A stretch of DNA of 64,000 nucleotides from Escherichia coli (GCF_024502345.1 NZ_JALDNN010000001.1); one strand, 5' to 3'; positions 55,201 through 58,200 are shown, counted from the first letter of the stretch. Numbers are program-made.

Positions 55201-58200
55201 TCGCCGTTGTGGCTGTAGTGATACCAGTAGAGAAGAATCGAGCTAAGTGACGCCAGCAATTTGTCGGCAATATCCCGCGCGCCAGAGACGGTATGCCCCT
55301 CTTTTTCTGGCAGCGTGCAGCCGAGCGCGGAAACGCCGGTGCGCATAACATCCATCGGGTGTGACGCCGCCGGTAAGGCTTCCAGCACGGTACGCACGTT
55401 AGCCGGTAAACCGCGCAGGGCTTTCAGTTTCGTTTTGTAAGCGGCGAGTTCGTCACGGGTCGGCAGTTTGCCGTGGATCAGCAGATGCGCCACTTCTTCA
55501 AATTCGCAATGTTCCGCCAGATCAAGAATATCGTAACCACGGTAATGCAAGTCATTGCCACTTTTACCCACGGTGCAGAGCGCCGTATTGCCCGCCGGAA
55601 CGCCAGAAAGTGCTACCGATTTTTTCGGTTTAATGACATGGGTACTGTTTTGCAGGATCGTTGTGTCGCTCATATTGTCCTCGTCATTGTTATCATTTGT
55701 AGGGTCGAGATTGTTGTCGGATGCGACGCCATGCGTCTTATCCGACCTACAGTTCAGTACACCCGTAGGCCTGATAAGTCGCGTCAGCGGCGCATCAGGC
55801 ATCGGTTGTCGAATACAACCAACGGGCGTTTTTTATTTCACCTGGCTACGGGCAAACAGGTCGTCGAGCTTCTCTTCGTACTGGTAGTAGTTGATGCTTT
55901 CGTACAGCTCGTTGCGGGTTTGCATAGTGTCGATGACACTTTTCTGCGTGCCTTCCTGACGCAGGACGTTGTAGACATGTTCAGCGGCGCGGTTCATGGC
56001 GCGGAACGCTGAAAGCGGGTACAGCGCCATTGCGACATGGGCGCTGCGTAATTCGTCGGTGGTAAACAGCGGCGTGGCACCAAATTCGGTAATGTTGGCG
56101 AGGATTGGCACCTGCACCGCATCGGCAAACTGGCGGTACATGGCGAGTTCGGTAATCGCCTCCGGGAACAACATCTCGGCACCCGCTTCAACATAGGCCT
56201 GCGCACGCTCGATCGCCGCATCCAGCCCCTCTACCGCCAGCGCATCGGTGCGCGCCATGATCACAAAATCAGGATCGGTTTTCGCATCCACCGCTGCACG
56301 GATCCGATCCACCATCTCCTCTTTCGAGACGATCGCTTTGTTCGGGCGATGACCGCAACGTTTCGCGCCAACCTGATCTTCAATATGCAATCCTGCCGCA
56401 CCGGCTTTAATCATCGATTTCACAGTGCGCGCCACGTTAAAAGCCGAAGATCCAAAACCGATATCCGCATCCACCAGCAGCGGCAGCGAGCAGACGTCGG
56501 TGATACGGCGAATGTCAGTCAGCACATCATCAAGAGTAGAAATACCGAGATCGGGCAGCCCCAGCGAACCTGCCGCCACACCACCGCCGGAGAGATAAAT
56601 CGCCTGATATCCGGCACGCTGCGCCAGCAGCGCATGGTTAGCGTTGATGGTGCCGACAATCTGCAATGGATTTTCTTTAGTGAGTGCAGCGCGAAACGCT
56701 TTACCTGGAGAGTGTAGAGACATAGCCCATCCTTTGTTATCAACTTGTTATTTACGTTGATAAAGACAAAGCAAGGGGTGTGCCACAATTGCCTGAATAA
56801 AATTAAATGCTTAATTTCAATTTGTTAGAGATAAACCCATGAATTAATCCGCAAATATGCGTTTCAGTTAACGTTTCAGGCAATGTTTCACTGCGTTTCA
56901 TTGCAACAATTATGAAACAAGACTAAACCCACTATTCGGTTTCTTAACTTTGCGGTGCGCTATGGCACATCCACCACGGCTGAATGACGACAAACCGGTT
57001 ATCTGGACGGTATCTGTAACGCGGCTGTTCGAGCTGTTTCGCGATATCAGTCTCGAGTTTGATCACCTGGCGAACATTACCCCTATCCAGCTTGGCGGTG
57101 ATGCTGCCAACTTACTGATTTAGTGTATGATGGTGTTTTTGAGGTGCTCCAGTGGCTTCTGTTTCTATCAGCTGTCCCTCCTGTTCAGCTACTGACGGGG
57201 TGGTGCGTAACGGCAAAAGCACCGCCGGACATCAGCGCTATCTCTGCTCTCACTGCCGTAAAACATGGCAACTGCAGTTCACTTACACCGCTTCTCAACC
57301 CGGTACGCACCAGAAAATCATTGATATGGCCATGAATGGCGTTGGATGCCGGGCAACCGCCCGCATTATGGGCGTTGGCCTCAACACGATTTTCCGCCAT
57401 TTAAAAAACTCAGGCCGCAGTCGGTAACCTCGCGCATACAGCCGGGCAGTGACGTCATCGTCTGCGCGGAAATGGACGAACAGTGGGGATACGTCGGGGC
57501 TAAATCGCGCCAGCGCTGGCTGTTTTACGCGTATGACAGGCTCCGGAAGACGGTTGTTGCGCACGTATTCGGTGAACGCACTATGGCGACGCTGGGGCGT
57601 CTTATGAGCCTGCTGTCACCCTTTGACGTGGTGATATGGATGACGGATGGCTGGCCGCTGTATGAATCCCGCCTGAAGGGAAAGCTGCACGTAATCAGCA
57701 AGCGATATACGCAGCGAATTGAGCGGCATAACCTGAATCTGAGGCAGCACCTGGCACGGCTGGGACGGAAGTCGCTGTCGTTCTCAAAATCGGTGGAGCT
57801 GCATGACAAAGTCATCGGGCATTATCTGAACATAAAACACTATCAATAAGTTGGAGTCATTACCCGCTTTGTCGATCAGATCTCCGGCGGGCAGCAGCAG
57901 CGCGTGGCGCTGGCCCGCGCGCTGATCCTCAAGCCGAAAGTGCTGCTGTTTGATGAGCCGTTGAGTAACCTCGACGCCAACCTGCGTCGCAGCATGCGCG
58001 ACAAGATCCGCGAGTTGCAAAAGCAGTTTGATATCACCTCGCTGTACGTCACCCACGATCAGAGCGAAGCCTTTGCGGTTTCTGATACTGTGCTGGTGAT
58101 GAACAAGGGACACATCATGCAGATCGGCTCACCGCAGGATCTTTACCGCCAGCCCGCCTCCCGCTTTATGGCGAGCTTTATGGGCGATGCCAACCTGTTC

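Follow-up and report, generated by a model that had tools for sequence, protein, structure and literature searches.

Propionate is a major short-chain fatty acid of the gut. For the sigma-54 holoenzyme to open a promoter, an enhancer-binding protein must supply its ATPase. Escherichia coli also has its cryptic catabolic operons, such as bgl, kept silent by H-NS and open to activation when an IS element inserts. IS1-promoted adjacent deletions, arising by intramolecular replicative transposition, were reportedly described by Reif and Saedler in 1975 and by Turlan and Chandler in 1995, and Cooper et al. are said to have found, in 2001, parallel IS150-mediated deletions of the rbs operon in the Lenski long-term lines. 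Adjacent deletions by IS150 are on record, and the usual reasons for a missing target duplication are an adjacent deletion or recombination between two IS copies (PMC11708052); IS1 itself generates target duplications of 8-9 bp and can transpose replicatively within one molecule (PMC12428005). As for propionate catabolism, reviews that draw on Palacios and Escalante-Semerena (2000, 2004) hold PrpR to be essential for transcription from PprpB, with sigma-54 and IHF also required, and name 2-methylcitrate, made by PrpE and PrpC, as the co-activator of PrpR (PMC5566544, PMC4987338).

The DNA that we analysed, here called the window, is the whole of a 64,000-nt stretch, one strand, from E. coli (GCF_024502345.1 NZ_JALDNN010000001.1). 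It is a chromosomal segment of this species and carries, in order, mhp, lacIZYA, cynXSTR, codAB, prpEDCB on the minus strand, the start of prpR on the plus strand, IS1, 'fbpC, mmuM, mmuP and a second mhpT/mhpE cluster. A Shigella origin was considered and ruled out, given that lacIZYA is intact, that there is a single IS1 in 64 kb and that the best matches are E. coli. We are fairly confident that the locus is the canonical E. coli prpR/prpBCDE 2-methylcitrate regulon after an IS1-associated deletion, and we think it quite likely, reading from the DNA, that prpBCDE would be orphaned and non-inducible and the strain unable to use propionate by the prpBCDE route. Neither the regulon nor the promoter class, IS1 or IS-mediated adjacent deletion goes beyond the textbook; what is new is that, in a natural E. 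coli lineage, an IS1-bounded deletion took the regulator from an intact sigma-54 operon. Our literature search returned no relevant report on prpR with IS1, on prpR in Shigella or on prpR pseudogenes.

The enzymes of the pathway are encoded by four genes, all of them running leftward from the promoter region:

51093..52979, minus strand: prpE, propionate--CoA ligase, 628 aa, intact; stop-free translation, matching the whole TIGR02316 profile (positions 1-628 of 628) with 1305 bits (cut-off 827)
53019..54470, minus strand: prpD, 2-methylcitrate dehydratase, 483 aa, intact; TIGR02330 at 924 bits (cut-off 458)
54504..55673, minus strand: prpC, 2-methylcitrate synthase, 389 aa, start MSDTT, intact; NF009006 at 722 bits (cut-off 550)
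55833..56723, minus strand: prpB, methylisocitrate lyase, 296 aa, intact; NF008455 at 561 bits (cut-off 353)

All four products are uninterrupted and stand above their NCBIfam equivalog cut-offs over the full length of the profile, so that the first-pass annotation, which had called the prp structural genes intact, was right on this point. PrpB, PrpC and PrpD are moreover identical to the proteins of a relative with an intact prpR (L010, GCA_019583735.1), and PrpE is the consensus among relatives, its lone difference from the L010 protein being private to L010.

Between prpB and prpR lie 238 bp (56724..56961, exactly the intergenic region; 36% G+C), which hold what one would look for at a PrpR-dependent promoter:

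56785..56771, minus strand: sigma-54 -24/-12 element of PprpB, TGGCACACCCCTTGC, a TGGCAC-N5-TTGC motif and the single match in 64 kb
56801..56827, unstranded: putative IHF-like AT-rich stretch between enhancer and promoter, WATCAANNNNTTR with 1 mismatch, at 56801-56813 and 56815-56827
56861..56918, unstranded: PrpR enhancer-like half-sites, five copies of GTTTCA, 4 on the plus strand and 1 inverted (56895-56900 / 56913-56918)

In TGGCACACCCCTTGC the GG and GC are exactly 10 nt apart. The element, already seen upstream of prpB in the first-pass annotation, stops 47 nt short of the prpB ATG and coincides in position with the known sigma-54 promoter PprpB. By count alone the motif is not significant (0.32 matches expected per window, and at least one match in 24 of 100 shuffles), and we judge the element to be real because of its position, 47 nt from the prpB start codon and downstream of both the GTTTCA half-sites and the IHF-like sites. 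The half-sites lie 75-150 nt beyond the -24/-12 element with the IHF-like sites in between; PrpR enhancers have the published consensus CGTTTCATGAAACG (PMC4987338, Table 1). In addition, the -24/-12 element is invariant in the intact-prpR relatives that we fetched and in the K-12-type allele.

It is on the other side of the intergenic region that the regulon falls apart:

56962..57096, plus strand: prpR stub, codons 1-45, reading MAHPP...IQLG (tblastn)
57097..57864, plus strand: IS1, 768 bp, sole copy in the window, transposase genes on the plus strand; begins GGTGATGCTGCC and is 100% identical to annotated IS1B-family elements in complete genomes
57865..58518, plus strand: 'fbpC (afuC), a 3' fragment of 217 codons with ~131 N-terminal residues missing; NF008513 positions 132-350 of 351, 405 bits, below the cut-off of 496

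A full-length PrpR, such as the 528-aa protein of L010, consists of PrpR_N, the Sigma54_activat AAA+ domain, AAA_lid and HTH_8, and of all this the window encodes residues 1-45 alone: tblastn of the whole protein finds the 45-codon stub, with codons 46-528, and yahO onward, absent. The fused reading frame continues for 8 codons into IS1 and then meets a stop at 57121-57123. The stub is thus a remnant and not a functional member of the PrpR family. IS1 begins directly after codon 45, just as the first-pass annotation had it; the loss of the activator is, however, more complete than was pictured there, since we are looking at a deletion joint with fbpC rather than prpR beyond the element. What follows IS1 is the 3' two-thirds of fbpC, annotated in relatives as a partial TOBE-domain pseudogene, and then mmuM and mmuP.

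The IS1 is itself in good order, with its full 768 bp, inverted repeats at both ends (GGTGATGCTGCCAACTTACTGAT and ATCAATAAGTTGGAGTCATTACC) and the insA/insB' genes, and the matching annotation in complete genomes is that of an IS1B-family transposase with programmed frameshift. Its 9-bp flanks differ, with CAGCTTGGC on the left and CGCTTTGTC on the right, so there is no 8-9 bp target-site duplication, and an IS1 without one is therefore to be placed at a deletion or recombination joint. A simple IS1 insertion into prpR is ruled out on these grounds, that is, by the missing duplication and by the presence of fbpC on the far side. It also follows that excision of IS1 could not restore prpR, because this is a deletion joint without target duplication.

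What stood here before can be read from relatives, and the two sides of IS1 tell different stories. To the left, L010 is 99.9% identical to the window across cyn-cod-prp and has a 528-aa prpR with yahO and yahN beyond it; the ancestral state would, on this comparison, be L010-like with an intact prpR. The prp DNA of the window is ~97% identical to that of the closest complete E. coli genomes and therefore represents a less-sampled allele. To the right, IS1 and the following 6.9 kb are 99.7-100% identical to strains G3/10, AH04, CX12, LHM10-1 and A30, and the IS1/'fbpC junction is common to at least nine complete genomes, five of them aligned over the 6.9 kb. The left neighbour of this fbpC IS1 varies from strain to strain: it is yahM in G3/10, where an intact prpR lies 1.9 kb away, an L-lactate permease gene in AH04 and LHM10-1, mrkB in CX12 and IS1-rich remnants in A30. 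Here, then, are a shared right junction, a novel left one and the loss of the DNA between them. A fixed right end, a variable left end and no duplication make up the classical pattern of IS-promoted adjacent deletion, and the comparison suggests that DNA has been shed again and again through a single resident IS1 in the fbpC region of the chromosome. A block of tens of kb is missing from the window, and an idea of what it may have held comes from strain GF3-3, in which the interval from prpR holds yahO-yahA, betTIBA, ykgEFGH, rclRABC, fdeC, ecpRABCDE and paoABCD plus a prophage, and runs for >90 kb without reaching fbpC.

The prpR|IS1 junction is not confined to the window. The exact 53-aa fusion peptide (PrpR 1-45 followed by GDAANLLI) was found in contigs from 8 samples, and a one-residue variant of it in one further sample; 4 of the 8 contigs carry the window's own allele, and other look-ups added four more loci in the same lineage. 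The lineage bearing the junction comprises L002, L003, L008, L012, L013, L024 and L043, and prpR is cut at codon 45 in at least seven samples of the window's lineage. The junction occurs in none of the 5,426 complete RefSeq E. coli genomes, gave 0 matches in JGI metagenome contigs and is found in 0 GTDB species representatives; a fusion peptide of prpR with IS1 in the opposite orientation is not on record. A second breakpoint at 57086, raised by 41-aa partial peptides in 869 index blocks, was set aside as more likely due to graph branches at a common C/T SNP at 57087.

One of these contigs, L001, is particularly telling. Its junction sits on another prp allele, one that matches K-12 at 100% over 3.1 kb. 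Of ~520 flanking positions 16 are unlike those of the window, and one of the 16 is 9 nt from the junction, a distance too short to be explained by recombination or by a chimeric assembly; this points to at least two independent IS1 events at the same prpR nucleotide and in the same orientation. We had counted five such events and cut the number to at least two that are secure, chimeras being possible for four metagenome contigs. Those four contigs stand for three further backgrounds, which may be genuine or may come from metagenome chimeras: L004 and L005, with ~200 nt in common with the K-12-type allele; L006; and L007, these last two identical to the window allele for 45 nt before the junction.

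The recurrence suggests an IS1 hot spot, and Galas, Calos and Miller reportedly noted, in 1980, homology between the ends of IS1 and its insertion hot spots. Within the prpR stub there is one possible lead of this kind:

57062..57081, plus strand: a pair of short words resembling IS1 ends, ATCACC and CATTACC, 15-30 nt upstream of the junction

Each word, read on the opposite strand, gives the opening bases of one of the two IS1 ends, and the pair occurs once in 64 kb, both strands considered; as a cause of target preference they are a possible lead only, noticed after the fact. A larger idea would be that nucleotides 135/136 of prpR are a sequence-directed IS1 target, perhaps guided by these two words, that has been hit independently and in one orientation in several E. 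coli lineages, that loss of PrpR is favoured in some gut niches, for example because a toxic build-up of 2-methylcitrate is avoided, and that propionate catabolism is being silenced convergently. We think this unlikely; were it so, the silencing would be an IS1-accelerated trait, not an accident.

How might the joint have formed? Our proposal is that IS1 would already have been inside fbpC before the join, a junction that it shares with other strains, and that this fbpC IS1 was then joined to prpR after codon 45, most likely by intramolecular replicative transposition, that is, as an adjacent deletion. An alternative route would be recombination with a second IS1 previously inserted at the same site in prpR, and an adjacent deletion and an IS1 x IS1 recombination leave the same sequence. 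By either route prpR codons 46-528 and the whole interval to mid-fbpC would have been lost. We take the alternative route seriously as a possibility while doubting that it is the right one. It would have IS1 insert simply at a preferred prpR site, followed by RecA-dependent recombination with the fbpC IS1 that deletes the interval, and this recombination may have occurred during import of G3/10-like DNA, with the functional outcome unchanged. In its favour, the window is a mosaic exactly at IS1 (~97% identical to G3/10 leftward and 99.99% rightward), the same prpR|IS1 junction is found on other prp alleles, and in the metagenome contig L006 the junction IS1 abuts a different gene, which fits a landing followed by varied recombination. 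However, we found no contig with prpR on both sides of IS1, and a look-up of the C-terminal PrpR fragment (starting at V50) gave frameshift alleles with a 2-nt deletion and one 16S chimera only; the nested left flanks in other strains mark the fbpC IS1 as the active end, and a deletion that brings together regions 60-100 kb apart would likewise yield a mosaic boundary at IS1.

Much less probable than either route is that there is no joint at all and that the assembly has been mis-joined over the 768-bp repeat, the real chromosome having one IS1 copy in prpR and a separate one in fbpC, and the interval between them being kept or rearranged. The complete prpR|IS1|'fbpC join is spanned by the window alone; 0 short-read contigs span IS1, those of the same lineage ending in or just before it, and relatives of the right-hand segment show at least 40 matching pieces per record, mostly IS1. 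Against this, the IS1 of the window is clean and full-length with no signs of collapse, analogous deletion joints at the same IS1 are present in several finished genomes, and even a false join would leave prpR cut at codon 45, as is seen independently in the lineage samples.

The outcome of such a deletion would be an operon left with the PrpR half-sites, the IHF-like region, the -24/-12 element and four intact enzyme genes, and with no activator. As the sigma-54 holoenzyme needs an enhancer-binding ATPase, and PrpR is the dedicated one, prpBCDE is predicted to remain in the closed complex and the strain not to grow on propionate; the operon is probably non-inducible, a prediction in agreement with the published dependence of the orthologous Salmonella and E. 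coli promoter on PrpR and sigma-54. Rescue would call for a functional prpR elsewhere, as a duplicate or re-integrated segment, or for a substitute enhancer-binding protein, and we give this very little credence. The structural genes and promoter are undamaged in the window, it is true, and nine plasmid-borne prpR matches and a handful of duplicate ones exist among 20,395 records. However, codons 46-528 of prpR are found at 5,229 places in 5,224 of the 5,426 complete E. coli genomes, with a maximum of 2 per genome, so that prpR is in essence a single-copy gene of this species and a rescuing second prpR in the source genome is a priori unlikely, a second copy being present in ~0.1% of complete genomes. 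The exact PrpR protein of L010 adjoins prpB in 10 of 10 fetched contexts, PrpR is essential for PprpB in published work, and one sub-lineage has already lost the GC of the -12 element. Equally hard to credit is a constitutive prpBCDE operon, with regulation lost and the pathway kept, read from a new promoter at an outward-reading IS1 end or a hybrid site, for although fusion promoters are known to arise where IS1 inserts (PMC12428005), the IS1 end is 373 nt from the prpB ATG, the IS1 genes are directed away from prpB and no sigma-70-like promoter faces prpB in 56600-57300.

The sub-lineage just mentioned (L003 and L012) carries 56772C>T, which turns the -12 TTGC into TTAC (GC to AC). In L002, PrpE carries G506R within the conserved HRLGT motif and PrpD carries R9H, and L008 has a 1-nt deletion in prpB. 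These few changes in the prp region of the junction-bearing lineage are all potentially damaging and fit relaxed constraint, of which they are hints; there are four of them, and two come from metagenome contigs. The pristine enzyme genes of the window fit a very recent event, at ~0.1% divergence from the relative with intact prpR, and would also fit continued use; the near-identity with L010 means that the deletion is recent, and the intact enzyme genes therefore say little about selection.

Other natural lesions of prpR came to light as well. An A5-to-A4 frameshift at codons 47-48 belongs to a lineage in which prpB and prpD are also split, and there is a 2-nt deletion near codon 21. PrpR fragments of 49 aa, which had been candidates for IS1 products, come from the A5-to-A4 lineage and were rejected as such.

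Loss of prpR is evidently not rare, and gene loss at the prp locus is ordinary genome decay that will not surprise a specialist, nor does the deletion change existing knowledge of sigma-54 regulation. Why, then, should it matter? An E. coli lineage unable to induce prpBCDE should differ in gut fitness and in propionate tolerance, and the locus is an annotation trap, in that pipelines would call the pathway present from its four intact enzyme genes, though it is probably unusable. In addition, the shared fbpC IS1 marks a region that repeatedly sheds tens of kb in one strain group, and the recurrence of one and the same IS1 junction makes prpR a natural case in which to study how IS1 chooses its targets.

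Set beside the prp regulon of Salmonella enterica LT2 and E. coli K-12, the locus is alike in gene order, divergence, -24/-12 element, GTTTCA half-sites, IHF-like spacer and the four enzyme genes, whereas its activator gene is down to 45 codons with all beyond deleted. It resembles the described IS1 adjacent deletions in that one IS1 is kept, one junction is constant and the other variable, there is no duplication and the intervening DNA is lost; the difference is that here the event is read from comparative genomics and is inseparable from homologous recombination between two IS1 copies. With the IS150 deletions of rbs in the Lenski lines it has in common a resident IS and repeated deletions with one fixed end, making catabolic loss a high-rate event, but the element here is IS1, the strains are natural isolates, it is the regulator rather than the structural genes that has been deleted, and selection in the prpR case is hypothetical. 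Finally, like cryptic E. coli operons such as bgl, this one has intact structural genes and is predicted to be silent for regulatory reasons; unlike bgl, which H-NS silences and an IS insertion can activate, prpBCDE has had its activator deleted, and no simple mutation would restore it.

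The region is a mosaic at IS1, since in a comparison with 5,426 complete RefSeq E. coli genomes the cod–prp segment (window 47000-57096) never exceeds about 97.6% identity, whereas the segment on the other, right-hand side of IS1 matches several genomes of that same set at 100%. The features that concern us here, in window coordinates, are as follows.

30435-30779, tandem REP/BIME array
50730-51068, tandem REP/BIME array
57062-57081, the words ATCACC and CATTACC, inside prpR, on the upstream side of the IS1 junction and 15-30 nt away from it
61224-63994, second mhp cluster, comprising an MhpT equivalog and an MhpE-type aldolase

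Heavy IS1 traffic in the prpR neighbourhood finds further evidence in several finished E. coli genomes (L053, L056 and L061), where IS1 lies directly downstream of an intact prpR and has taken the place of yahO. In one metagenome contig (L006, 1311-1542), IS1 at prpR codon 45 is followed not by fbpC but by the gene for a PAS-domain, Aer-like receptor; this join reflects either a further rearrangement or chimeric assembly. Taken as reverse complements, the words ATCACC and CATTACC match the opening bases of the two IS1 ends, and their pairing occurs once in the 64 kb, with both strands counted; the pair may account for a target preference of IS1 at prpR.

We also observe that prpR has been damaged naturally by further lesions (loci L018-L023 and L045-L046). 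One lineage, in which prpB and prpD are split too, has its frame shifted at codons 47-48 by an A5-to-A4 change; a second lesion is a 2-nt deletion near codon 21 on a K-12-type allele, for which 28 index blocks list carriers. A different pattern is a contig end shared at one exact prpR base, equivalent to window position 57086, 10 nt short of where the IS1 junction lies, which is seen in contigs that 869 index blocks list (L028-L037; one of them, L036, is an NCBI isolate contig). The common C/T SNP at 57087 probably makes the assembly graph branch here and so produces these ends. At the prpB promoter, the sub-lineage of L003 and L012, which bears the same prpR–IS1 junction as the window, carries 56772C>T, changing the sigma-54 -12 motif from TTGC to TTAC; this may be the first step of promoter decay.

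The two REP/BIME arrays, built of 101-nt and 94-nt units in about 3.5 copies each, score as naRNA4 in Rfam, and the copy number of the codB–prpE intergenic array differs between close relatives. Beyond the junction, mmuP is adjoined by the second, paralogous mhp cluster, an arrangement common to the complete genomes G3/10, AH04 and CX12, and this cluster shares 83% DNA identity with the canonical mhpE/F of the same window (30820-32309).
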